This document shows, one piece after another, positions 3,097 through 18,122 of a stretch of 24,000 bases of DNA. Source of the DNA: an uncultured Actinomycetota bacterium (lineage in GTDB: Bacteria; Actinomycetota; Actinomycetes; Propionibacteriales; Nocardioidaceae). The stretch's first letter is position 1. The number at the start of each line of letters is the position of its first letter. The notes under the pieces were generated by a model, which saw nothing but the letters and a program-made list of their open reading frames with translations, ran no database searches and was not told the origin of the DNA. A program made the translations under genes and the position numbers. The stretch covers positions 507,558-531,557 of the forward strand of contig CAWIUT010000010.1 in the NCBI GenBank assembly GCA_963839365.1, given 5' to 3'.

Positions 3097-3951
3097 ATGG
3101 CTGACCGGCTGCTGGTGACTCCCTATGCGAGGGACCTCACCGTGGTGTCCCTCCTGGACGAGCGGGGAGTGTGCCTGCCTGACCGGGCTGGGCGGCCTGC
3201 CAGCGTGGAGCTGCTCGAGTCGATCCTGGCGCGGGAGGGCTGGCAGTACCGGTCCCGGCTGGTCACTGGCGCCTGGGAGGCGCACTTCGTTGCCTACGGC
3301 GGGCGCCGGCCGCCGATCCGCGAGGTGAGCCTCGGAGCCGACGGCACCTTGGACTTCGGTGCCAGTCCGCTCTACGGGTCGTGGCACGTGTCGCAGGAGG
3401 TCGCCCGGAACTGCGGGCCGCAGGTCGCCGTGGAGTCCGGCGGCCGAGCCATCTGCCTGGTCACCGAGGCCACCCCCTACGAGGAGTTCCACCAGACGAT
3501 GGCCGGCCGCGCGGTGCCGGAGGACCGCAGCGACCTTCAGTGGGACGGCGCGTCGCAGCGGGAGGAGCGGCCGCACACCACCCGGCTGGCGGGGCTGCTG
3601 CCGACTCCGGAAGAGGCGCTGGAGGTCGCGCTGGCCGGGGGGTCGGGGCACGAGCAGGCCGCCACCCAGGTCGGCCGGGCGCTGCAGGCCTACCGGTGGT
3701 CCGGCCCGCAGTCCCCGCCGCTCAGCCTGGATGCGGCGCGCCACCGCGCCGTGCTGGAGCGGCTGCGCCGGTACGTCCGGGACACTCCCGTGCCCGCGGC
3801 GGACCTGGTGTGGGCGCTGGGGCAGGCGGACGGCACCCGCGACGACCTCGCGGCGCTGCTCGCCCGGCTGCAACCGGGCGACGGCCCCGGCGACGGGGCG
3901 GCTGACCCCGCCGCCGAGACGATGGCCATGGCCCGGGTCTTCGTGCGTTAG
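3097..3951 (+). CDS. hypothetical protein (no recognisable domain)
   Basis: 284-aa ORF with an ATG preceded by GAGAGGA (3080-3086). Third codon positions are strongly G/C along its length. It is soluble and Arg/Ala/Glu-rich. I recognise no motif. Confidence 0.6.
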   Translation: MADRLLVTPYARDLTVVSLLDERGVCLPDRAGRPASVELLESILAREGWQYRSRLVTGAWEAHFVAYGGRRPPIREVSLGADGTLDFGASPLYGSWHVSQEVARNCGPQVAVESGGRAICLVTEATPYEEFHQTMAGRAVPEDRSDLQWDGASQREERPHTTRLAGLLPTPEEALEVALAGGSGHEQAATQVGRALQAYRWSGPQSPPLSLDAARHRAVLERLRRYVRDTPVPAADLVWALGQADGTRDDLAALLARLQPGDGPGDGAADPAAETMAMARVFVR

Positions 3952-5061: not shown

Positions 5062-5151
5062 CGTGTTTGGCTGTGGCCCGGCGCACGTGGGGGACCTCCG
5101 CGACATCTCGGGACCTCCCACGCCGATGTCCTAGTGGAGAGGAAGTCTGCG

Positions 5152-6810
5152 ATGTCAGCACCTGTGCCGGACGGCCCCGCCGACCTCGTGGTCCGCGGGG
5201 GGCGGCTGTTCACCGCCGTGGACCCGGGACCGGCGGGGTCCGGCGACGGTCTGGACGCGATCGCGGTCAAGGGCGACCGCATCGTCGCCGTCGGCCGGGG
5301 GGACCTCGACGGGCGCATCGGTCCGCGGACCGAGGTCGTCGACGCCCGCGGCGGCATGGTGGTCCCCGGCTTCCAGGACGTCCACGTCCACGCGCCGTTC
5401 GCCGGCCACAACATGCTCCGGCTCTGGCTCAACGACGAGCCGGGACGCCAGGCCTACCTGGACCGGGTCCGGGAGTACGCGCGGCAGCACCCGGACGAGG
5501 AGTGGATCGTCGGCGGCGGCTGGGCGATGGAGTACTTCCCCGGCGGGACGCCGGTCAAGGAGGACCTCGACGCCATCGTGCCGGACCGCCCGGTCTTCTT
5601 GTTCAACCGTGACGTGCACGGAGCCTGGGTCAACTCGCGCGCCCTGAAGATCGCCGGCATCACGCGGGACACCCCAGACCCCGTGGACGGGCGGATCGAG
5701 CGGGACCCGGTCACCGGGGAGCCGACCGGCACGCTGCACGAGGGCGCGGCGTACAGCTTCAACGAGCGGATCGTGCCGCTCCCGGACCAGGTGACCTGGG
5801 AGAACGCCATCCGCGCCGCGCAGCGGCACCTGCACGCGCTGGGCATCACCGGCTGGCAGGACGCCTGGGTGACCCCTGCGACGGGGCAGGCCTACCAGTC
5901 CCTCGCGCAGCGCGGCGAGCTGACCGGCCGGGTGGTGGGCGCACTGTGGTGGGACCGGCACCGCGGGGTGGAGCAGATCGAGGAGCTGCGGGCGCGGCGG
6001 GAGCGCGGGGTAGCCGGGGCCTTCCTGCCCACGTCGGTCAAGATCATGCTCGACGGGGTCATGGAGAACTACACCGGAGCGCTGCTCGAGCCTTACTGCG
6101 ACGGCTGCGGGGGCACGACGACGAACAGCGGGCTGAGCTACGTCGACCCCGAGCTGCTCGAGGCAGCAGTCACCGAGCTGGACCGGCACGGCTTCCAGGT
6201 GCACATGCACGCGATCGGGGACCGGGCGGCGCGCAACGCCCTCGACGCGGTGGCCGCGGCGCGGGCGGCCAACGGGCCGAACGACAACCGGCACCACGTG
6301 GCGCACCTGCAGCTGCTGCATCCCGACGACCTTCCCCGGTTCGCCGAGCTGGACGTGGTCGCCAACCTGCAGGCCTACTGGGCGCAGAAGGAGCCGCAGA
6401 TGGACGTGCTGACGGTGCCCTTCCTCGGGGAGGAGCGGTCCCGGCTCCAGTTCCCCTTCGGTGACCTGATGCGGCACGGGGCGCGCCTGGCGATGGGCAG
6501 TGACTGGGCGGTCACCACCGCGGACCCGCTGCAGCAGATCGAGGTCGCGGTGACCCGGGCCGATCCCGGCCGGCGCTCCGACCAGCCGTTCCTGCCCGAG
6601 CAGGCGCTGCCGTTGCCCGTGGCGCTGCGCGCCTTCACCGCCGGGTCGGCCTACGTCAACCACGACGACGACGCGGGCGTGCTGCGGGTCGGCGCGCGCG
6701 CCGACCTCGCGGTCCTCGACCGGGACCTGTTCGCCGGCGAAGGCACGCCTCCGGCGGATGCGTCCGTGACCCTGACCGTCGCAGCCGGGCGGATCGTGCA
6801 CCGGCGCTAG
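5152..6810 (+). CDS. metal-dependent amidohydrolase, YtcJ-like (amidohydrolase 3 family)
   Basis: Trimmed to ATG 5152, preceded by GGAGAGGAAG (5136-5145). The sequence reads N-terminal ..GGMVVPGFQDVHVHAPFAG.. (HxH metal site), ..FQVHMHAIGDRA.., ..NRHHVAHLQLL.. and C-terminal ..LAMGSDWAVT.. (Asp). This is the typical TIM-barrel amidohydrolase layout. Confidence 0.85.
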   Translation: MSAPVPDGPADLVVRGGRLFTAVDPGPAGSGDGLDAIAVKGDRIVAVGRGDLDGRIGPRTEVVDARGGMVVPGFQDVHVHAPFAGHNMLRLWLNDEPGRQAYLDRVREYARQHPDEEWIVGGGWAMEYFPGGTPVKEDLDAIVPDRPVFLFNRDVHGAWVNSRALKIAGITRDTPDPVDGRIERDPVTGEPTGTLHEGAAYSFNERIVPLPDQVTWENAIRAAQRHLHALGITGWQDAWVTPATGQAYQSLAQRGELTGRVVGALWWDRHRGVEQIEELRARRERGVAGAFLPTSVKIMLDGVMENYTGALLEPYCDGCGGTTTNSGLSYVDPELLEAAVTELDRHGFQVHMHAIGDRAARNALDAVAAARAANGPNDNRHHVAHLQLLHPDDLPRFAELDVVANLQAYWAQKEPQMDVLTVPFLGEERSRLQFPFGDLMRHGARLAMGSDWAVTTADPLQQIEVAVTRADPGRRSDQPFLPEQALPLPVALRAFTAGSAYVNHDDDAGVLRVGARADLAVLDRDLFAGEGTPPADASVTLTVAAGRIVHRR

Positions 6811-6833: not shown

Positions 6834-8216
6834 ATGTCAGACACCCACACCCAGCCTCGGTTGCAGCGCGTGCTCGGGGTGCCCGAGCTCGTGCTGTTCG
6901 GGCTGGCCTACATGGTCCCGCTGACGGTGTTCACCACCTACGGCGTGGTGACCGACCTGACCCACGGACACCTGCCCGGCTCCTACGTCCTGACGCTGGC
7001 CGCGATGCTCTTCACGGCGTACAGCTACGGACGCATGGTCGTCGCGCACCCCTACGCCGGGTCGGCCTACACCTACACCCAGAAGTCGTTCGGGTCGCAC
7101 GTCGGGTTCGCGACCGGGTGGGCGCTGCTGCTCGACTACATCTTCCTGCCGATGATCAACTACCTGGTCATAGGGATCTTCGTGCAGGCTGCGGTGCCGA
7201 GCATCCCCGCCTGGGTCTGCGTGGTCGTCTCGATCGTGCTCGTGACGCTGCTGAACGTGTTCGGCATCAAGCTGGTGTCCACGATGAACCTGGCCCTGGT
7301 CGCCTTCCAGGTGGTCTTCCTCGTGGTGTTCTTCGTGTTGGCCTTCGGGACCATGGGCCACCAGGGCGTGCCGTCGCTCGCCGCGCCGTTCTTCGGACAC
7401 GGCGCCAAGCCGGGGGAGCTGTTCGCCGGGGCCGCCATCTTGTGCCTGTCCTTCCTCGGCTTCGACGCGATCTCAACGTTGTCGGAGGAGGCCCGCGACG
7501 CGCGGCGCAGCATCCCGAAGGCGATCATGCTGGTGACGCTCATCGGCGGGGTCACCTTCATCGCCGTCTCCTACGTCGGCCAGCTGGTCTTCCCCGACTA
7601 CCACCACTTCACCAACGTCGACTCCGCCGCGACCGACGTGATGCGCCGCGCGGGCGGTGCCTTCCTCGCGTCGTTCTTCACCGCGGCCTACGTGGCCGGC
7701 TGCTTCGCCTCCGCGATGGCGTCGCAGGCGAGCGTGGCCCGAATCCTCTATGCCATGGGACGCGACGGGGTGCTGCCGCGCCGGCTCTTCGGGCGTCTGC
7801 ACCAGCGCTTCAGCACCCCGGCGAACGCCGTCGTGCTGGTCGGGGCGGTGTCCTTCGTGGCGTTGGCGCTGAGCCTGTCCGTGGCCGCCGCGATGATCAG
7901 CTTCGGTGCGCTGGTGGCGTTCTCGATGGTGAACCTGTCGGTGATCAAGCGCTATCTCATCGACACCGGGGCGCGGGACGCCTCGTCGGTGCTCCGGTAC
8001 GGCGTCGTACCAGCGATCGGCGTCGGACTGACGATCTGGCTGTGGACCAGCCTCTCGAAGACCACCTTCGAGGTCGGGCTGTCCTGGCTGGCGGTCGGGC
8101 TGGTCTACCTTGCTGTCGTGACACGAGGCTTCCGTCGGCAGCCACCGGTGCTGGACCTGTCGGAGAGTGACGACGAGCCGAACGGGGCCGGTGTGGCCGA
8201 GGAGGTGCGGGCCTGA
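6834..8216 (+). CDS. APC superfamily amino acid/polyamine permease
   Basis: ATG 6834 is preceded by CAGGAGA (6823-6829). It has about 12 TM segments. The N-terminal ..LGVPELVLFGLAYMVPLTVFTTYG.. and ..SAYTYTQKSFG.. resemble PuuP-type APC permeases. It starts 23 nt after the amidohydrolase stop. Confidence 0.85.
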   Translation: MSDTHTQPRLQRVLGVPELVLFGLAYMVPLTVFTTYGVVTDLTHGHLPGSYVLTLAAMLFTAYSYGRMVVAHPYAGSAYTYTQKSFGSHVGFATGWALLLDYIFLPMINYLVIGIFVQAAVPSIPAWVCVVVSIVLVTLLNVFGIKLVSTMNLALVAFQVVFLVVFFVLAFGTMGHQGVPSLAAPFFGHGAKPGELFAGAAILCLSFLGFDAISTLSEEARDARRSIPKAIMLVTLIGGVTFIAVSYVGQLVFPDYHHFTNVDSAATDVMRRAGGAFLASFFTAAYVAGCFASAMASQASVARILYAMGRDGVLPRRLFGRLHQRFSTPANAVVLVGAVSFVALALSLSVAAAMISFGALVAFSMVNLSVIKRYLIDTGARDASSVLRYGVVPAIGVGLTIWLWTSLSKTTFEVGLSWLAVGLVYLAVVTRGFRRQPPVLDLSESDDEPNGAGVAEEVRA

Positions 8217-9064: not shown

Positions 9065-9214
9065 CGCGTCGCCCGGCGGACAGCCGAGGGCTGAAGGCAG
9101 CGCCCGGCTGCGCCGCGGCGCCGCAGAGCGGACAACCCTCGCATTGCGGGCCACCCCGCCGGCAATTCGGCGAATCGCCTGTCCGTCGGCACGATCCAAG
9201 CCATCATCTTTGCC

Positions 9215-10255
9215 GTGCATCCACGAACCCCCGGTCCTCGCTCCCGCATGCCCGGCCTCCGTCTGCTCGGCGTGCTGGCGTTCGCCCTCGCCAGCATCAC
9301 CGCTGCCACCCAGCTCCCGGCCGCGCCGTCACAGGCGGCCGGTCGCGACCCAGCGGCGGCCGCGCGGGCCGGCGTGACCCCCGTGGTGCAGGTCAAGCGG
9401 CACAGGGGCGTGGTGACCGGTGACGGGCACGCGGTGTTCCTGGCCAACCGGACCGAGTTCCGCCCGCGTCGTACGCAGGTGACTGTGCCTCCGAGGGTGC
9501 GCGCCCGGTCCTGGGTCGTGGTGGACCTCGGCACCGGTCGGCTGCTGGGCAAGCACAACGCCCGCAAGCCGCTGCCGCAGGCGTCCACGATGAAGCTCCT
9601 GACCGCGGTGACCGCGGCCCGGGCGGTGGACAGGAGCGTGCCCCACAAGGTCACGCGCTCGGAGGCGCACCAGATCTGCACCTGCGCGGGGCTGGCGCCC
9701 GGTCACTACTACACCTTCCAGACGCTGATGGAGGGCATGCTGCTGCCCTCGGGCAACGATGCGGCCGAGGCGCTGGCCGGTTCCTACCGCGGCGGCAGCG
9801 CCGCCTTCTACGGCCGGATGAACCAGGTCGCGCGCAGTCTCGGCGCGCGGGAGACGGTGGCCATGAACGCGTCCGGGCTGACCGCTCCCGGGTCGCACTC
9901 GTCGGCGCGGGATCTCACCATCCTGCTGCGGGCAGCGCTGCGACGCCCTGCGATCAGGCACGTGATGGCGATGCCGTCGGCCACGATCGCCACCTACTCC
10001 GGGCGGCACGCGCACACCGTCTCCCGGGGCACCAACTACGTCAACACCTACCCGCACTCGCTGGGCAAGAGCGGCTACACCACCCCCGCCAAGAACACCC
10101 TCGTGGTGGCCACCTGGCTGGGCCCGCACCACCTCGCCGCCGCGGTCATGGGCGCGCCCTACGGCTACTCCACCTCGGACGCGCGCGGGCTGAGCACCTG
10201 GGCCGCGAAGAACTTCGCCGGCCTGCGTGCGGTCGGCCGGTTGCCACACTCCTGA
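9215..10255 (+). CDS. D-alanyl-D-alanine carboxypeptidase (serine peptidase S11 / PBP5-type), secreted
   Basis: Signal peptide (MPGLRLLGVLAFALASITAATQLPAAPSQAAG). SxxK motif ASTMKLLT, SxN motif LPSGNDAAEAL, and a K(T/S)G motif LGKSGYTT. The start is either GTG 9215 or ATG 9248. Confidence 0.8.
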   Translation: MHPRTPGPRSRMPGLRLLGVLAFALASITAATQLPAAPSQAAGRDPAAAARAGVTPVVQVKRHRGVVTGDGHAVFLANRTEFRPRRTQVTVPPRVRARSWVVVDLGTGRLLGKHNARKPLPQASTMKLLTAVTAARAVDRSVPHKVTRSEAHQICTCAGLAPGHYYTFQTLMEGMLLPSGNDAAEALAGSYRGGSAAFYGRMNQVARSLGARETVAMNASGLTAPGSHSSARDLTILLRAALRRPAIRHVMAMPSATIATYSGRHAHTVSRGTNYVNTYPHSLGKSGYTTPAKNTLVVATWLGPHHLAAAVMGAPYGYSTSDARGLSTWAAKNFAGLRAVGRLPHS

Positions 10256-10433
10256 TCGGCGAGACTTCGCCCTCGAAGGCCGCCAGCAGCCGCGCGCTGT
10301 GTAGGGGCCACAAGGACGTGCAGCCTCCCCCGATATTCGCCGAATGAGCGCACGAACCGGCAAGGGTGCACGTCCGTATGGCCCCCCGGGGGGCGCGGAG
10401 TCATCCGCCAGACCAACCGTGTCCCCACGCGAG

Positions 10434-10682
10434 TCAGAAGGAGGACGCGTGCGGGGGGCGGAACCCGACCTTCTCTTCGGAGGGCATGAGGATCCACAGG
10501 ATCGGATAGACGAGAATCTGGCTGCCGGGGATGACCAGGAGCAGCAGCACGAACAGGATCCGGGCGGGCCACGGCGGGATGCCGACACGTCGTCCGAGGC
10601 CGGCGCACACTCCGCCGAGCACTCGCCCATCAACCGGTCGGACGAACCCTCGGCGGGCGAAGCTTTGCTGGATGGCATTCAT
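10434..10682 (-). CDS. PspC domain-containing membrane protein
   Basis: Trimmed to ATG 10680-10682 (MNAIQQSFARRGFVRPVDGRVLGGVCAGLGRRVGIPPWPARILFVLLLLVIPG..). This is the typical PspC N-terminal domain followed by one TM helix. Confidence 0.75.
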   Translation of the reverse strand: MNAIQQSFARRGFVRPVDGRVLGGVCAGLGRRVGIPPWPARILFVLLLLVIPGSQILVYPILWILMPSEEKVGFRPPHASSF

Positions 10683-10809
10683 GAACGGTGCACTTCCTCG
10701 GATCGGGTTGCCTTGCTGACAAGGTCCACTGTGCGTCGCGGCAGGGCGCCGGCACATCCGGCGAAGCCCTGAGCCGACCCTGAACATGCGTCCCTGCAGC
10801 TTGTGGGCG

Positions 10810-11655
10810 TCACCGGGTGTCCGGGTCGGGTGCGTCCCGACGGAGTACGGCGTCCCGCAGCACCGTTCCGCCGCCGAAGGAGCTGCTCACCCGACTGCCG
10901 GCGAGCACCCGATAGGGCGCAGCCGAGACCGAGGCGGCGCGCGCCAACGCCGTACCGGGACAGGCATCCGCGGACGCGACAACCAGGAGGTTTCCGGCGC
11001 GCCGGCCTTTCAGCGTGCTCGGCTCCGCGCCGACCACCTGGTGCTGCCAGCAGCATCGCAGCCCGCCGACCACGTCCCGGGTCAGGGCGAAGGGGGCGTG
11101 GTCGGTCAGGTTGGCCACGAACACGCCTCCCGCATCGAGCACGCGCGCGACCTGCTCGAAGCACTCGACGGTGAGCAGCTCGCCGGGCACGCGCCCGTCG
11201 AGGTAGGCATCCAGGACGACGACGCCGACCGATCTCTCGCGCACCTGTGTCAGGCCCCGACGGCCATCGACCGGGCGCACCCGGATGCCACTGCGCCGGG
11301 GCAGCGGCAGCTCGGACCGCACACGCTCGGTCAGCTCCTCGTCCGGCTCCAGCACGATCTGGTGCGATCCGGGCCTGGTCGCGGCCACGTAGCGCGGCAG
11401 CGCGAGGCCGGCGCCACCGATGTGCACGATCCGCAGCGGCTGGCCCGGCCGGCTCCGGCCATCGATGACATCAGCCATCCGACGCAGGTAGTCGAACCCG
11501 AGGCGAGTGGGGTCTTCCAGGTCGACCAGCGACTGGTCGCGGCCGTCGACCCGGACCAGGAACGAGTCGGGCCGGTCGGACGCGATGATCTCGACCACGG
11601 TTCCGGGCCGGTTCGCAGCGGGGCTCGTCGAGCCGGTGGTCGCAGGCACGGGCAC
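10810..11655 (-). CDS. spermidine synthase-like SAM-dependent methyltransferase-fold protein
   Basis: GTG start at 11653-11655 lies immediately after the TAG (11656-11658) of the upstream AKR gene. It carries a Gly-rich nucleotide loop IVHIGGAGLALPRY, an acidic VLEPD, and VVVLDAY..G..P..L. This matches actinobacterial spermidine-synthase-like proteins. The substrate cannot be told from sequence. Confidence 0.65.
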   Translation of the reverse strand: MPVPATTGSTSPAANRPGTVVEIIASDRPDSFLVRVDGRDQSLVDLEDPTRLGFDYLRRMADVIDGRSRPGQPLRIVHIGGAGLALPRYVAATRPGSHQIVLEPDEELTERVRSELPLPRRSGIRVRPVDGRRGLTQVRERSVGVVVLDAYLDGRVPGELLTVECFEQVARVLDAGGVFVANLTDHAPFALTRDVVGGLRCCWQHQVVGAEPSTLKGRRAGNLLVVASADACPGTALARAASVSAAPYRVLAGSRVSSSFGGGTVLRDAVLRRDAPDPDTR

Positions 11656-12624
11656 CTACAGCCCGGTGGGAGCCCGTGGGGCGTAGGACCGCTCCAGGAG
11701 GTCGGTCTCGTCGTCGCTGAGCTCAACTTCGAGTGCTGCCACAGCATCGGCGAGGTGGTGAGGCTTGGTGGCGCCGACGATCGGTGCGTCCACGACGGGG
11801 GTGCGCAGCACCCAGGCGAGCGCGACCTGAGCCATGGGAACCTCCCGCTGCCGGGCGATGCCTTCAACGGCGTCGACGATCGCCTTGTCACTGTCTTGGT
11901 AGAGCTTGCGGGCGAAGGCGTCGCTCTCGGAGCGCTGGGTCTGCTCGCCCCACGGACGGGCCAGCCGCCCGCGGGCGAGTGGGCTCCAGGGGATCGACCC
12001 GATCGCCTGGTCGGTCAGGAACGGGAACATCTCCCGCTCTTCCTCCCGCATGAGCAGGCTGTACTGGTCCTGCATGGACACGAACCGGGTCCACCCGTGC
12101 AGGTCGGCAGCGTGCTGCATCTTCGCGAGCTGCCAGGCCCACATGGAGGACGCCCCGATGTAGCGGGCCTTGCCGGCCTTGACGACGTCGTGCAGCGCCT
12201 CCATGGTCTCCTCGACCGGAGTGTGCCGGTCGAAGCGGTGGATCTGGTAGAGGTCCACGTAGTCGGTGCCGAGGCGGGTGAGGGAGGCGTCGATCTGTTC
12301 CATGACGGCTCGGCGGGAGAGACCCGAGCCGCCGGGACCGTCGTGCATCCGCCCGTGCACCTTGGTGGCGAGAACGATGTCCTCACGCCTGGTGAACCGC
12401 TTGATCGCCCTGCCGACGAACTCTTCGGACGAGCCGTGGCTGTAGACGTTGGCGGTGTCCCAGAAGGTGATGCCGAGATCCACGGCCTGCCGGAAGTAGG
12501 GCTGGGCGGCGTCCTCGTCGAGCACCCAGGAGTGTCCACCCATGGAGGCGTCGCCGTAGCTCATGCAACCCAGGGCGATCCGGCTGACCGTGAGTCCGGT
12601 CCGGCCCAGACGGGTGTACTCCAT
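11656..12624 (-). CDS. aldo/keto reductase (NADPH-dependent oxidoreductase)
   Basis: Trimmed to ATG 12622-12624, preceded on the minus strand by GAGAGGA. MEYTRLGRTGLTVSRIALGCMSYG.., ..FWDTANVYSHGSSEEFVGRA.., ..DYVDLYQIHRFD.., ..ARYIGASSMWAWQ.. are classic AKR family motifs (catalytic Asp/Tyr/Lys/His context). Confidence 0.9.
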   Translation of the reverse strand: MEYTRLGRTGLTVSRIALGCMSYGDASMGGHSWVLDEDAAQPYFRQAVDLGITFWDTANVYSHGSSEEFVGRAIKRFTRREDIVLATKVHGRMHDGPGGSGLSRRAVMEQIDASLTRLGTDYVDLYQIHRFDRHTPVEETMEALHDVVKAGKARYIGASSMWAWQLAKMQHAADLHGWTRFVSMQDQYSLLMREEEREMFPFLTDQAIGSIPWSPLARGRLARPWGEQTQRSESDAFARKLYQDSDKAIVDAVEGIARQREVPMAQVALAWVLRTPVVDAPIVGATKPHHLADAVAALEVELSDDETDLLERSYAPRAPTGL

Positions 12625-12744
12625 GGTGGGGATCCTCTCGTTCGACGTCGCGCGACCGGGTCCTACCCGGAGCGGCCTGTCGCAATACCGATGAGTCGGT
12701 GACTGCTCGCCGGGCTGCCGGAGGGGGCCGGGTCGCGTGAGACC

Positions 12745-13353
12745 ATGCGGTCCATGGTCGAGGAACCGGGGTCGCGCCGGGTGGCGGCCCCGGACAAGGA
12801 GACCCTGTCCTTCGGCAGCCGCCGAAGGTCTCGCACGTGGGCGCGGCCGGTGCTGGTAGCGGCCGTGCTCGCCGCAGGTGCCGGGGTGGGCGTCTTGCTG
12901 CTCCGCCCGGACCCGTTGCCTCCACCCCGCGCCGTGGCCGCGGTCGGAGGGGCCGGCTGGACGGTCACCACGGACCGCGCCGCGCACCGTTCGAGCTTCA
13001 CGTTCGAGCTGCGCAGCACCGTCGCCGGGCCGGTCACCATCACCGGGGTCGGACGCAGCGCTCGGGGCCTCCAGCTGCTACGCACCCGCGCTCGCCCCCG
13101 ACGCGACGGGAGCGCCCTGGGTCGGCCCGGTGGTGCCCCGCTGCCGATCTCGGTCGGGCGGAGCTCACTGGTGGCCGTGACCTTGGTCTACCACGTGATC
13201 GGGTGCCCCGGGTTGCGCGGGCGATCCTGGCCGATCCCGGTCACCTACCAGGTCGGTGGGTCGCGCACCCGCACGACGATGATCGATCCGGGAGGCGGCT
13301 CCTTCGAGCTGGCCTGGCACGACGCGCTGACGCATCGCGCCTGCGGCGACTGA
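12745..13353 (+). CDS. hypothetical membrane-anchored protein (single TM, extracytoplasmic domain)
   Basis: High third-position G/C throughout. It has a basic N-terminus, one TM helix (PVLVAAVLAAGAGVGVLLL), then a Thr/Val/Arg-rich domain of about 140 aa with two Cys. No motif recognised. The start codon is uncertain. Confidence 0.55.
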   Translation: MRSMVEEPGSRRVAAPDKETLSFGSRRRSRTWARPVLVAAVLAAGAGVGVLLLRPDPLPPPRAVAAVGGAGWTVTTDRAAHRSSFTFELRSTVAGPVTITGVGRSARGLQLLRTRARPRRDGSALGRPGGAPLPISVGRSSLVAVTLVYHVIGCPGLRGRSWPIPVTYQVGGSRTRTTMIDPGGGSFELAWHDALTHRACGD

Positions 13354-13464
13354 GCGGCAGGAGGGTTCGGCGCGCGGCGAAAGGCGCGCAGCGTCCGAGC
13401 CCCCGCTCCACTCGTCGCGAAACGGGCCACATGGGCTCTGGAAAGCGCCACCCCGCCGCATCTT

Positions 13465-13799
13465 GTGTGGGGGAACCGGCGTCCGACCTGGCATCAGGGC
13501 CATGACGTCAGTCGGGTCTACGAGCTGCGCCGCCGGGCGCCGCCGGGCGCGGGACTGGTGCTGCCGCTGGTGCGCCGGCGGTGGCTGCCCGGGATCAGCA
13601 CCCAAGCGTCCTGCTCCACCACCTCGCCGTCGAGGACGCCAGCACCTCCGGGAGCGCCACGTCCAACATGGGCGAGTCCGGCGGGGTCGCCGAGCTCGAG
13701 AGGTTCAAGCAGTCGTTCGGCACCGTTCGGGTTCTTGGCCAGGTTACCGCTGGCGGTGGCAGAGAACACACGTACAAGATTCGGGCATTTTGCCGGTAG
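13465..13799 (+). pseudogene. possible degraded coding remnant(s) upstream of the heliorhodopsin gene; no product assignable
   Basis: By hand count, 40 consecutive codons in one + frame (13605-13724) end in G or C. A second + frame is similarly biased from 13465 to about 13635. The bias collapses at 13723, exactly where the msrA-like repeat starts. The minus-strand frames that share these wobble positions cannot be excluded. No intact gene-like ORF with a recognisable product is present. Confidence 0.25.
13723..13759. repeat. direct repeat copy A (orphan copy of the msrA 3'-end segment)
   Basis: ccgttcgggttcttggccag (13723-13742) is identical to 14874-14893. With one 1-nt indel the similarity continues to 13759/14909 (33 of 37 aligned columns, hand count). 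Confidence 0.7.
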
Positions 13800-13930
13800 G
13801 CCCATCCAGTGAAGGCAGCCACCGCCATGGCCCTGGCAGGTCGGTTGCCGCGGAGGTGGGGGACCTTCGGCTCTGATGGCGTCCGTTGCCCGTCGCAACC
13901 CTGGGGTAACGCTGGTTCGAGGGAGGCGCC

Positions 13931-14722
13931 ATGGCTGTCAGGACAAAGCCGGCCACCCCGTCGCCGACCGAGCGCACCGCGCTCGGCTACAGGGGGCTGA
14001 GGGTGTTCAACGTCGTCGTCGGGGTGCTGCTGGCGGCGCAGGCCCTGTACATGCTGCTCACGAGCAACGATCTCGCGCTCCCGGTCACCGCGTCCTTCCT
14101 GCGGACCAACCCGGTCGCAGTGACCCCACCGTCACCGCCCGAGTCGCTGTTCTCGCTGGGTATCGGCGTGACGGTGGCGGTCTTCCTGCTGCTCGCTGCG
14201 CTGGACCACTTCACCGCGGCCGCCCCTGGGGTGCACCGCTGGTACGAGCGCGGTCTCGCCCTGCGCTCCAACTACGCGCGCTGGGTGGAGTACTCGGTCT
14301 CCGCATCAATCATGATCGTGCTGATCGGCCTGTTCGTGGGCATCCGTGACCTCGCGGCACTGATGGGCATCTTCGCGGCGAACACCGGGATGATCCTGTT
14401 CGGACTGCTGATGGAGCGACAGCAGAGGCCCGGTGAGGCGGACTGGAGCGCATTCTGGTTCGGCTCGCTCATCGGTCTCGTCCCCTGGGCAGCCATCGCG
14501 ATCTACGTCGCCCAACCGCCGTCCGTGCCCGCCTTCGTGTACGTGATCGTCGTGGTGCAGTTCCTGCTGTTCTTCAGCTTCGCCGCGAACATGGCTCTGC
14601 AGTACGCCCAGGTGGGGCGTTGGCGAAGCTACGTGTACGGCGAGGTGGCCTACGTCGTGCTCAGCCTGACCGCCAAATCGCTGCTCGCCTGGCTGATCTT
14701 CGCGAACGTCCTGCGCAGCTAG
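13931..14722 (+). CDS. heliorhodopsin (7-TM retinal-binding photoreceptor, HeR family)
   Basis: ATG 13931 is preceded by GGGAGG (13920-13925). The 263-aa protein has seven hydrophobic segments. HeR signature blocks are RWVEYSVSASIMIVLI (Glu120), MILFGLLME, FWFGSLIGLVPWAAIAIYV and YVVLSLTAKSLLAWLIF (Lys249, AAA 14675-14677). These match my memory of reference HeR 48C12 (RWVEYSLSSSVMIVLI, MILFGWLQE, FWFGCIAGIVPW, YIVLSLVAKSALAWQIF). Confidence 0.9.
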   Translation: MAVRTKPATPSPTERTALGYRGLRVFNVVVGVLLAAQALYMLLTSNDLALPVTASFLRTNPVAVTPPSPPESLFSLGIGVTVAVFLLLAALDHFTAAAPGVHRWYERGLALRSNYARWVEYSVSASIMIVLIGLFVGIRDLAALMGIFAANTGMILFGLLMERQQRPGEADWSAFWFGSLIGLVPWAAIAIYVAQPPSVPAFVYVIVVVQFLLFFSFAANMALQYAQVGRWRSYVYGEVAYVVLSLTAKSLLAWLIFANVLRS

Positions 14723-14827
14723 CGCCGCAGCTGCATCCCTTGTCCGGCCCGGGTTCCGGGGTCCGGATGCCGCCAAGCTCGGAGGGCACGCCTTCCCGGT
14801 CCAGCATCCGCTGCCGGACTCACGGGC

Positions 14828-15475
14828 TCAGTCGTCGGGGAACGGCACTTCGGTGGCCGAGTGGCAGCGGTAGCCGTTCGGGTTCTTGGCCAGATACTGC
14901 TGGTGGTGGTCCTCGGCGTAGTAGTACGTCGGCGCGGGCGTGACCTCCGTGGTGACCGGACCGTACCCCCGGCGCCGCAGCTCCGGCTCGTAGACCGCGA
15001 TGAGCTCGCGGGCCACCTTCTCCTGCTCCGCGTTGCAGGGGTAGATCGCCGAGCGGTACTGCGTGCCGATGTCGTTGCCCTGGCGCATCCCCTGGGTGGG
15101 GTCGTGGAACTCGAAGAACGCCTTCACCAGGTCGGCGTACGACACCACGCTGGGGTCGAAGACCACCCGGACCGCCTCGGTGTGCCCGGTCATCCCGGTG
15201 CACACCTCTTCGTACGACGGGTGCGGGGTGATGCCACCGGCGTAGCCGACGGAGGTGGACCAGACTCCGGGCATCTGCCAGAAGACCTCCTCCGCGCCCC
15301 AGAAGCAGCCGAGGCCGAACATCGCCACCTCGAAGCCGTCGGGGATGTCGGACTCGTCGGTGACCAGCGGCGCGTCGAGCACCAGGTGCTTCTCCGCGAG
15401 CGTGAACCAGGGCTCGTCACGGCCCGGAAGCGCCTGCTCAGAGGTGGGCATCTCCTGCTTGCGGTGGAACAACAC
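14828..15475 (-). CDS. msrA: peptide-methionine (S)-S-oxide reductase MsrA
   Basis: GTG start 15473-15475 is preceded on the minus strand by AGGAGAGGA. The N-terminus MLFHRKQEMPTSEQALPGR.. parallels E. coli MsrA (SLFDKKHLVSPADALPGR). The active-site motif is FGLGCFWGAE. The C-terminus is ..HHQQYLAKNPNGYRCH... Confidence 0.95.
   Translation of the reverse strand: MLFHRKQEMPTSEQALPGRDEPWFTLAEKHLVLDAPLVTDESDIPDGFEVAMFGLGCFWGAEEVFWQMPGVWSTSVGYAGGITPHPSYEEVCTGMTGHTEAVRVVFDPSVVSYADLVKAFFEFHDPTQGMRQGNDIGTQYRSAIYPCNAEQEKVARELIAVYEPELRRRGYGPVTTEVTPAPTYYYAEDHHQQYLAKNPNGYRCHSATEVPFPDD
14874..14909. repeat. direct repeat copy B (inside the msrA 3' coding end)
   Basis: Partner of 13723-13759. On the minus strand it encodes ..HHQQYLAKNPNG.. 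of MsrA. Confidence 0.7.
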
Positions 15476-16745: not shown

Positions 16746-18122
16746 ATGACTGAGCTGGTCTGCTGCGTCGACTTCGGTTCGACGTTCACCAAGGCCGCGC
16801 TCGTCGACGTCGACAGCGGCGTGCTGGTCAAGTGCGCGGAGCACCGGACGACGGTCGACACCGATGTCCTGGACGGCTGGGAGGCGTGCCTGGCCGAGCT
16901 GGCCGCTGAGCACCCCGACGCAAAGGACGCCGAGGTGCTCGCCTGCTCGTCCGCCGGTGGGGGGCTCAGCATTGCCGTGGTCGGGAACGAGGAGCTGGTC
17001 ACGGCCGAGGCCGGACGCCGCGTGGCCCTGTCCAGCGGCGGCAAGGTCGTGCACGTGGCCAGCGGCGGCCTGGACAAGGCCGGGGTGGTCCGGCTGCGTG
17101 AGGCGCACCCGGACGTGGTGCTGCTGGTCGGCGGAACCGACGGCGGGAACACGGAGGTCCTGCTCGGCTGCGCCAACGCCTTGGCCACGGCACGATGGCG
17201 CGGGCCGGTCGTGGTCGCCGGCAACGTGGAGGCCCGCGACGAGGTCGCCGCGCTGCTGGACCGGGTCGGCACGCCGTACGTGCTCGCCGACAACGTGGTC
17301 CCGCAGATCGGGGTGCTGGCACCGGCCTCCGCGCGCGCCGCGATCCGAGCGATGTTCCTGCGTCACGTGATCGGCGGCAAGCACCTGTCGGCGAGGGCCG
17401 ACTTCACCACGATGGTGCGTGGCGCCACCCCCGACGTGGTGCTCACCGCCGTGGAGCTGCTCGCGCACGGGCTCGACGAGGAGCATCCCGGCGCGGGAGA
17501 CGTAGCGGTCGTCGACGTCGGCGGAGCGACCACCGACGTGCACTCCGTGGTCGAGGTCGATCCGGAGGACGCCGGGCTTGGCCGCGAGGTGGTCGCCACC
17601 GTGCCGGTGACCCGCACCGTGGAGGGCGACCTCGGGATGCGCTGGAGCGCGGTCACCACGGTGGCCGAGGGCATCCGGGCCGGCCTGGTCGATGAGCAGG
17701 ACCGCGAGCGGCTGGAGCACGCCGCCCGCCGTCGCCAGGCCGACCCCGGGCTGCTGCCCGTCGACGAGCAGGGCGCCGCGCTGGACCGGGGGATCGCCTC
17801 GCTGGCCATCGCCGTCGCGCTGCGCCGGCACGCCGGCCGCGCCCGGGTGGTGTTCGGGCCGGACGGCCGACTGGTGGAGCGCACCGGCACCGACCTGCGC
17901 GAGGTGGACATGCTGGTCGGCTCCGGGGGCGTTCTCCGGTACGGCGGACCGGCCGCCCGCAGCGTGCTCACCGCCCGGCTCGACGACACGGGAGGGTGGC
18001 AGGTGCCGCGCGATCCGCGGACCGTGGTGGACAACGACTACGTGCTGGCTCCAGCCGGCCTGCTGGCCGCCGACCACCCTCGCGCGGCCTTCGCGCTGCT
18101 GGGGACGCTGTTGCAGGGCTGA
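16746..18122 (+). CDS. GlmL/MutL-like (glutamate mutase accessory-type) ASKHA-fold protein
   Basis: The N-terminal VCCVDFGSTFTKAALVD is a phosphate-1 motif of the actin/HSP70/sugar-kinase fold. A second ..VAVVDVGGATTDVHSV.. motif is present. Length and layout match proteins annotated as 'glutamate mutase L' in actinobacteria (from memory). It starts 14 nt after the metB stop. Confidence 0.6.
   Translation: MTELVCCVDFGSTFTKAALVDVDSGVLVKCAEHRTTVDTDVLDGWEACLAELAAEHPDAKDAEVLACSSAGGGLSIAVVGNEELVTAEAGRRVALSSGGKVVHVASGGLDKAGVVRLREAHPDVVLLVGGTDGGNTEVLLGCANALATARWRGPVVVAGNVEARDEVAALLDRVGTPYVLADNVVPQIGVLAPASARAAIRAMFLRHVIGGKHLSARADFTTMVRGATPDVVLTAVELLAHGLDEEHPGAGDVAVVDVGGATTDVHSVVEVDPEDAGLGREVVATVPVTRTVEGDLGMRWSAVTTVAEGIRAGLVDEQDRERLEHAARRRQADPGLLPVDEQGAALDRGIASLAIAVALRRHAGRARVVFGPDGRLVERTGTDLREVDMLVGSGGVLRYGGPAARSVLTARLDDTGGWQVPRDPRTVVDNDYVLAPAGLLAADHPRAAFALLGTLLQG

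Follow-up and report, generated by a model that had tools for sequence, protein, structure and literature searches.

The described heliorhodopsins (HeRs) nearest to the one discussed here are 48C12, a subfamily-1 protein from a freshwater actinobacterial fosmid (PDB 6SU3/6SU4/6UH3), and, at a greater distance, TaHeR of the Thermoplasmatales archaeon SG8-52-1 (6IS6). Other members of the family, from actinobacterial or Firmicute monoderm hosts, have been connected with a partner: AbHeR with glutamine synthetase (PMC9529153), TfHeR with photolyase (PMC9769723) and OcHeR with the OmrDE ABC transporter (PMC11109279), and for these three a light-dependent protein-protein modulation at the cytoplasmic side was proposed. 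Proton transport has been shown only for viral HeRs (PMC9448325). This work deals with a HeR gene at positions 13931..14722 of a 24,000-nucleotide stretch of DNA from an uncultured actinomycete, called here the window, where it lies beside msrA, the gene of a peptide methionine sulfoxide reductase. An earlier note, made from the letters of the same DNA, had named the gene a heliorhodopsin and mentioned the glutamine synthetase and photolyase reports as well as the lack of ion transport in most HeRs; the papers cited above bear out these statements and add the ABC transporter.

The HeR of the window is 43-46% identical to 48C12 over 241-259 positions and belongs to the same length class. The two have in common the Lys/Glu/Ser triad at the Schiff base, His80, the Arg104/Glu149/Glu230 network, Pro40, Pro172, the hairpin of the AB loop and the fenestration residues, and the predicted structure matches 6SU3 with a template-modelling (TM) score of 0.87-0.89. 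They differ in that His23, Ser76, Ser112, Leu202, Asn207 and Gln247 of 48C12 are here Leu, Ala, Ala, Gln, Phe and Leu, respectively; Gln213 is Met (a common variant), Ser201 is Val, Phe79, beside His80, is Asp, and the EF loop is five residues shorter. TaHeR shares the fold (TM 0.85/0.89) at 37-39% identity (E 5e-51), but its host is an archaeon and it is more distant than 48C12. AbHeR, TfHeR and OcHeR, compared here by description, have the partner gene in their operon, whereas the HeR gene of the window stands alone. Much closer are the proteins named 'heliorhodopsin HeR' of Micromonospora (for example M. siamensis, M. marina and M. maritima) and of metagenome-assembled genomes (MAGs) of Nocardioidaceae and Streptosporangiaceae, which are 69-83% identical, belong to the same clade and carry the identical signature Leu34/Ala89/Ala125/Gln210/Leu255, but sit at other genomic positions, with other neighbours, in every case.

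A role as sensor or regulator is the most likely one for this protein. We think it rather probable that the gene encodes a functional, slow-cycling light sensor or regulator of an unlinked partner, that it belongs to a clade of soil actinomycetes, and that it sits, as a monocistronic gene, in a segment inserted at the 3' end of msrA.

The heliorhodopsin and its clade

The gene and the positions within and before it that the argument needs are the following.

13931..14722, plus strand: heliorhodopsin coding sequence, 263 amino acids and stop, ATG start (open reading frame, profile matches, model, dN/dS)
14288..14290, plus strand: GAG, Glu120, Schiff-base counterion, Glu107 in 48C12 (alignment, codon checked)
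14675..14677, plus strand: AAA, Lys249, retinal-binding lysine, Lys241 in 48C12, with Ser245 at -4 (alignment, codon checked)
14030..14032, plus strand: codon of Leu34, in the column of His23 of 48C12, the clade-defining substitution (clade alignment)
13920..13926, plus strand: Shine-Dalgarno-like AGGGAGG, 4 nt 5' of the ATG (read from the sequence)
13761..13930, plus strand: non-coding leader, presumed promoter region of the HeR gene (inferred)

The product is confirmed as a genuine and intact heliorhodopsin by comparisons of profile, alignment and fold, all in silico and all in agreement with the identity first proposed. It matches Pfam PF18761 with 288.7 bits (cutoff 26.7; E 4e-86) over profile positions 1-242 of 242, and the NCBIfam equivalog 'heliorhodopsin HeR' (NF038020) with 268.6 bits (cutoff 100), and a Pfam scan of the protein finds no other family at E<=1. 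A search of PDB sequences returns 48C12 (E 6e-56) and TaHeR, at the E value given above. In the HMMER alignment onto 48C12, Glu120 and Lys249 fall in the columns of Glu107 and Lys241, Ser245 in that of Ser237, Ser124 in that of Ser111 and His93 in that of His80. The earlier note had read the same frame and start, the same two key codons, RWVEYSVSASIMIVLI at 117-132, YVVLSLTAKSLLAWLIF at 241-257, MILFGLLME, FWFGSLIGLVPW, His93 within LDHF and the basic N-terminal residues R4, K6, R15, R21 and R24; all are found exactly so, and the third-helix sequence of 48C12 that it quoted is that of the PDB chain.

Conservation extends well beyond the Schiff base. PMC7049168 lists 17 polar or charged residues as highly conserved, and 14 of them are identical here, all but His23, Ser76 and Gln213. 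From the residues of the Schiff-base cavity and cytoplasmic network given in the same paper, all of His80, Asn101, Tyr108, Asn16, Glu230, Arg104, Tyr92, Glu149, Gln216, Tyr226 and Trp105 (11 of 11; 48C12 numbering here and in the rest of this sentence) are kept, as are Phe72, Met115, Met141, Ile142, Phe206, Asn138, Trp173 and Gly145 in the retinal pocket and the structural prolines. An AlphaFold2 model built from 37 homologues (mean pLDDT 71, pTM 0.69) has seven helices and the HeR-specific beta-hairpin of the AB loop (strands 49-53 and 72-77). By Foldseek it superposes on 6SU3, 6UH3 and 6IS6 with TM scores of 0.85-0.89 and a root-mean-square deviation of 2.2-2.9 A, as opposed to 0.47-0.59 on type-1 rhodopsins, the best of these being about 0.59 at 14% identity. 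A type-1 microbial rhodopsin (Bac_rhodopsin) was also considered and rejected, given the lack of such a Pfam match, the serine (Ser245) at the position of Asp212 of bacteriorhodopsin (BR) and the low TM scores. With the helix boundaries of the model, the N-terminus and the loops BC, DE and FG carry 11 lysines and arginines, and the loops AB, CD and EF, with the C-terminus, carry three, a distribution that fits the predicted inverted topology with a cytoplasmic N-terminus, as the earlier note had argued from the N-terminus.

The gene itself is under constraint. In a sequence of about 71% GC spurious open reading frames occur in all six frames, but the HeR frame has the third-position GC signature of a real gene (GC3 0.905, compared to 0.88-0.95 in neighbouring genes), and pairwise dN/dS with six orthologues is 0.14-0.27, which is purifying selection. 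Neither GC nor GC3 departs from the values of neighbouring genes for membrane proteins, and a recent foreign origin was therefore rejected as far as composition can tell. The orthologue in the MAG GCA_035690905.1 is 83% identical, and housekeeping proteins of that MAG are 83-89% identical to theirs; such a divergence, together with the ordinary composition, makes the gene look native to its lineage but positionally mobile. Its promoter probably lies in the leader 13761..13930, where DNA homology with another HeR locus, that of the same MAG (L002), begins at 13858. The upstream region holds no Rfam match at the gathering threshold, nor one at E<=1 beyond noise, no sigma-70 consensus and no terminator match, and the four open reading frames in 13463-13898 have no Pfam match.

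What sets this protein apart is shared with its relatives. We compared 143 relatives at >=65% identity (at least 65%) with 53 more distant HeRs; the sources of the close ones are Micromonospora, Nocardioidaceae, Streptosporangiaceae, Acidothermaceae and MAGs of Mycobacteriales. Fixed in the clade are, in 48C12 numbering, His23Leu, Phe37Leu, Ser76Ala, Asp at position 79, Ser112Ala, Ala120Gly, Leu202Gln, Phe205Leu, Gln247Leu and Thr252Val, and the position of Asn207 is Phe in 125 of the 143; the corresponding residues here include Leu34, Ala89, Asp92, Ala125, Gln210, Phe215 and Leu255. The position of His23 is Leu in 143 of 143 relatives and His in 50 of the 53 more distant sequences; that of Ser76 is likewise Ala in all 143. 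Among about 100 full-length representatives of the whole family the column reads His in 70, Tyr in 8, Leu in 6 and Phe in 5, so that the loss of His23 is a minority state rather than a unique one. The replacement of His23 and Ser76 by Leu34 and Ala89 is not disqualifying for membership, about 25% of diverse representatives being without His at that position. We found no characterised member of this clade in the searchable literature.

The quantum-mechanics/molecular-mechanics study PMC9726877 gives these substitutions their possible meaning. It proposes that, after proton transfer to His80, an outward path runs through His23, water, Gln26 and Trp246, with Ser76 reorienting, and that a separate inward network consists of His80, Asn16, Tyr92, Glu230, Arg104 and Glu149. 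The HeR of the window is without His23 and Ser76 of the outward path and has the inward network fully intact. We infer from these residues that the clade, if it signals at all, would do so via the cytoplasmic face.

One further observation concerns the retinal lysine in the family at large. The column of Lys241 holds Arg in about 12 of some 100 diverse HeR-family representatives, and Asn in one close member of the clade; such proteins may be HeR-like but retinal-free, or they may be artefacts of alignment or assembly.

As a gene, this one is an ordinary member of a large, known and automatically annotated family: 2,843 representatives at 50% clustering reach E<=1e-3, and, when clustered at 90% identity, over 1,000 clusters have E<1e-20. 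The remark of the earlier note that HeRs are often left as hypothetical proteins is true of JGI, where relatives often have that name, and not of NCBI, which names them 'heliorhodopsin HeR' automatically.

The 3' end of msrA

The HeR gene and msrA converge, with a spacer of 105 nt between them, and a repeat derived from msrA lies at either side of the HeR gene.

14828..15475, minus strand: msrA, peptide methionine sulfoxide reductase, convergent with the HeR gene (PF01625, E 4e-62)
13723..13760, minus strand: distal repeat copy, a degenerate remnant of the msrA 3' end with the codons of HHQQYLAKNPNG, in which a 1-nt indel leads to a stop (repeat search)
14874..14910, minus strand: proximal repeat copy inside the intact msrA coding sequence, encoding HHQQYLAKNPNG (repeat search)

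The core is a perfect direct repeat of 20 nt (13723-13742 and 14874-14893), for which 100 shuffles lead one to expect none. It extends to about 38 nt with one indel; the distal copy is frameshifted and lies 170 nt 5' of the HeR gene, and the two copies bracket a segment of about 1.1 kb that holds it. The repeat footprint itself is established.

Such a footprint is not restricted to the window. The comparison took in 72 msrA loci whose downstream sequence extends over 300 nt or more. Six of these (the window among them) have a partial copy of the msrA 3' end in the same orientation, 0.4-2.5 kb downstream, and the remaining matches in msrA loci are 11-15-mers in either orientation, at chance level. 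The cargo is different in each of the six (other loci are given by their L numbers).

Window, repeats 13723-13760 and 14874-14910: HeR
L081, repeats 10586-10605 and 11683-11702: alpha/beta-hydrolase
L085, repeat at about 3651-3674: unknown protein of 382 amino acids
L093, repeat at about 1667-1713: Glyoxalase_6 protein
L095, repeat at about 5133-5155: nothing
L161, repeat 9170-9243: FAD monooxygenase and ABM protein

The copy starts at the same HHQQY codons in four of the six (window, L093, L095 and L161), and in L161 it is 74 nt long with 98.6% identity. The tail allele of L093 is HANTGVK in the distal copy and HSATGVPFP in the resident gene; one of the two must thus stem from another lineage.

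The surroundings of msrA in related genomes tell of the same variability. The flanks of the window contain mca (PIG-L), DUF4307, greA, a threonine dehydratase, an AI-2E transporter, a GlmL-like 'MutL' protein, a Cys/Met PLP enzyme and msrA; their proteins are 82-90% identical to those of Nocardioidaceae (Actinomycetota) MAGs, with the gene order kept. These Nocardioidaceae-like flanks and the actinobacterial mca-DUF4307-greA arrangement point to a monoderm host. In L081-L084 and L086 the order mca-greA-ilvA-metB-msrA is maintained, with other genes behind msrA: YCII, an alpha/beta-hydrolase or DUF3303. A DD-carboxypeptidase gene that is 4.6 kb away from msrA in the window is about 500 nt from it in L086 (reverse complement 334-837), with only a YCII-like gene between. 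Hence the 4.6-kb segment of the window (10256-14827), with its genes for PspC, a spermidine-synthase-like protein, an aldo/keto reductase, a hypothetical protein and HeR, is variable. In the closest HeR-bearing relative, the MAG GCA_035690905.1, HeR (L002) and msrA (L082) are on different contigs.

The footprint goes with msrA and not with HeR. Around HeR genes of the clade in other genomes there are no direct repeats, and none of 80 other HeR loci contains fragments of the msrA tail; the footprint thus belongs to the msrA site. A 23-nt element found at 7274 and 9086 in L074, in direct and inverted orientation around a HeR of Dehalococcoidia, is probably a dispersed repeat unrelated to it.

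These inserts resemble the genomic islands bounded by attL/attR at gene 3' ends in that the repeats derive from the 3' end of the target and recur, the target gene stays intact, the cargo varies, one junction is used in four of the six loci and the distal tail allele of L093 is not that of the resident gene. They are unlike them in their size, only 0.4-2.5 kb, and in that no integrase or other recombinase was found: neither in the six inserts, nor within the 24 kb of the window, nor, for the 99 open reading frames downstream of msrA, among the top 25 Pfam families by frequency. Our search of the literature found no report of msrA as an attachment site and no description of the hot-spot. The sequences suggest that the 3' end of msrA is a hot-spot at which insertion has recurred; segments could have arrived there by an integrase acting in trans or by a Campbell-type single crossover, or could be what is left of larger islands after decay. 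The HeR segment would have had such a history of insertion. Given a footprint that recurs with unrelated cargo, the adjacency of HeR and msrA marks an insertion hot-spot and not a functional link.

It is tempting to speculate further that the last 75 nt or so of msrA in Nocardioidaceae-like actinomycetes are an attachment site for cassettes of one or two genes without a recombinase, each bringing a replacement msrA tail, with HeR as one cargo captured by a trans-acting recombinase or a Campbell-type single crossover. This would be a site of gene capture, loosely comparable to an integron, that moves photoreceptor genes within soil actinomycetes, an idea we regard as doubtful.

Neighbours of the gene

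The gene is monocistronic, and its neighbours give no clue to its function. Conserved neighbours were considered as such a clue and rejected, no gene of the window recurring in the 80 other HeR loci: a tblastn comparison of 21 window proteins with these loci found nothing syntenic. Clustering about 1,000 neighbouring open reading frames gave only weak recurrences local to clades: one small membrane protein, another small family without annotation, a MerR/B12-binding-like regulator, SDR and GTP cyclohydrolase I. The window encodes no homologue of any of these, and even inside the clade the neighbours vary. This agrees with published surveys, according to which 61% of helR genes are transcribed alone (PMC11109279); none of the ten recurrent neighbour classes of that paper adjoins this HeR. 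Since the insertion is at a variable msrA site, the genes next to HeR would not be its functional partners. All open reading frames with coding signal were scanned for carotenoid and retinal genes (crt, blh and RPE65 families) and none was found in the window, as the earlier note had stated; a handful of the frames matched no family at all.

On the 5' side of the HeR gene about 570 nt are without detectable features. Within them, 13354-13722 (about 370 nt, between a hypothetical gene at 12745-13353 and the msrA-tail remnant) has weak coding statistics and no match in Pfam, Rfam or related loci. That the gap is a remnant of the alpha/beta-hydrolase found behind msrA in L081 was considered and rejected. 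The spacer between HeR and msrA folds no better than shuffled sequences (z = -0.6).

Elsewhere in the same HeR clade, a multi-pass membrane protein of about 165 amino acids adjoins HeR in seven loci (L006, L010, L013, L016, L021, L024 and L025), in five of the seven convergently and directly 3' of it, and in several (L013, L016, L021, L024 and L033) an unannotated protein of about 187 amino acids, of the second recurrent family, follows. The two could be a clade-specific pair of partners; neither has a homologue in this window. Proteins that, judged by eye, resemble MerR regulators with a B12-binding-like C-terminal domain (like the light-responsive CarH/LitR) are encoded 5' of HeR in a few members of the clade, at 3758-4660 in L008, about 3.3 kb away, and adjoining HeR at 6617-7519 in L019 and 865-1836 in L024, consistent with 'MerR' being a neighbour class of HeR in PMC11109279.

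Two observations concern other genes of the window. The genes of the aldo/keto reductase and the spermidine-synthase-like protein (10810-11655 and 11656-12600, minus strand) abut in one frame, and the upstream stop followed directly by the downstream GTG at the 11655/11656 junction suggests translational coupling. The GlmL-family protein at 16746-18122 (Pfam 'MutL', PF13941) scores below the cutoff of the equivalog for the methylaspartate-mutase accessory protein; its gene lies directly 3' of that of the Cys/Met PLP enzyme in five of five loci (window and L081-L084), with the AI-2E transporter next in four, and there is no glutamate mutase near it.

Proposed role and its alternatives

The mechanism we favour would run as follows. 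The protein, a seven-helix HeR of the membrane with its N-terminus in the cell, would bind all-trans retinal through Lys249, in a protonated Schiff base whose counterion is Glu120. The retinal pocket and the complete cytoplasmic hydrogen-bond network (His80, Asn16, Tyr92, Glu230, Arg104 and Glu149 in 48C12 numbering) are kept in the clade. On illumination its cytoplasmic face would change and modulate a partner protein whose gene lies in another part of the genome. The gene would have come to its present place within the segment of about 1.1 kb at the 3' end of msrA, where related genomes have unrelated cargo.

Several points weigh against this interpretation. The window has no retinal or carotenoid gene as a source of the chromophore, and no partner can be named from the neighbourhood of HeR. 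Without His23 and Ser76 the photochemistry could be altered or slowed. To speak of a lost relay may also over-interpret a tolerated substitution, as Tyr, Leu or Phe stand at the position of His23 in about 20% of the representatives. Confidence in the structural model is moderate (mean pLDDT 71). As to the insertion, the window has a short repeat of 38 nt, and in none of the six inserts was a recombinase found that could account for its mechanism.

A tempting alternative is that HeR and msrA, 105 nt apart, form a module against photo-oxidative stress in which light, through HeR, raises or activates methionine sulfoxide repair. Redox genes (thioredoxin, peroxidase, catalase and glyoxalase) are indeed enriched near HeRs, and a role in easing the oxidative stress that light brings about has been proposed (PMC8612252). 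Being convergent, however, the two genes cannot be co-transcribed; msrA lies within 8 kb of HeR in none of the 80 other HeR loci, and the 84 other msrA loci are all without HeR; the closest relative that bears HeR has the two on separate contigs (L002 and L082 of one MAG); and the repeat footprint accounts for their adjacency as an insertion site. As we also found no link between HeR and MsrA in the literature, such a module is very improbable. Another alternative, that a mobile insert carries HeR as an inert passenger which has lost its function, takes its appeal from the variable segment, the decayed msrA fragment beside it and the lack of a chromophore pathway in the window. It is hard to reconcile with an intact reading frame with every catalytic residue, a Shine-Dalgarno sequence, the dN/dS of 0.14-0.27 and a clade conserved across several actinomycete families, and we give it next to no credence.

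Two other alternatives concern what the protein does with light. According to a recent proposal (bioRxiv 10.1101/2025.11.27.691015) HeRs could be two-antenna harvesters, with a xanthophyll at the lateral fenestration, that serve energy and not signalling. The fenestration motif is intact here, the aromatic residues Phe175 and Phe214, the small ones Ser179 and Ala218, and Gly182 corresponding to 162, 206, 166, 210 and 169 of 48C12, but the conserved Asn at 207, part of the carotenoid site in that preprint, is the bulky Phe215, as it is Phe in most of the clade (125 of 143). Since, moreover, bacterial HeRs are not known to have an energy-converting activity and the preprint rests on docking and structure only, we consider light harvesting unlikely in this case. 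Proton transport gated or driven by light, as in the viral V2HeR3, might be suspected from the polar Gln210, at the position of Leu202 in an otherwise hydrophobic extracellular half, where many viral subfamily-2 HeRs have Glu. Gln is not ionisable, however, and the 43-46% identity to 48C12, the retinal pocket of subfamily-1 type and the presence of Pro185 (Pro172 in 48C12), which is absent from subfamily 2, place the protein among HeRs of the 48C12 type, which do not transport ions (PMC7049168); transport is therefore extremely improbable. The role as a light sensor or regulator of an unlinked partner is the one we retain.

Taken alone, the gene is one more HeR in a family of thousands and gives no opening into the question of what HeRs do. 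What this work adds is the signature of an uncharacterised clade and the insertion footprint at the 3' end of msrA. The footprint removes the sole tempting contextual clue to function: it gives the reason why the context of the locus is uninformative and guards against reading HeR and MsrA as an oxidative-stress module. The recurrent insertion site may merit a comparative study of its own. The clade, large, at home in soil actinomycetes and now defined by the absence of His23 and Ser76 next to a whole cytoplasmic network, is a natural mutant for asking if the extracellular relay His23-Gln26-Trp246 matters in HeR signalling.

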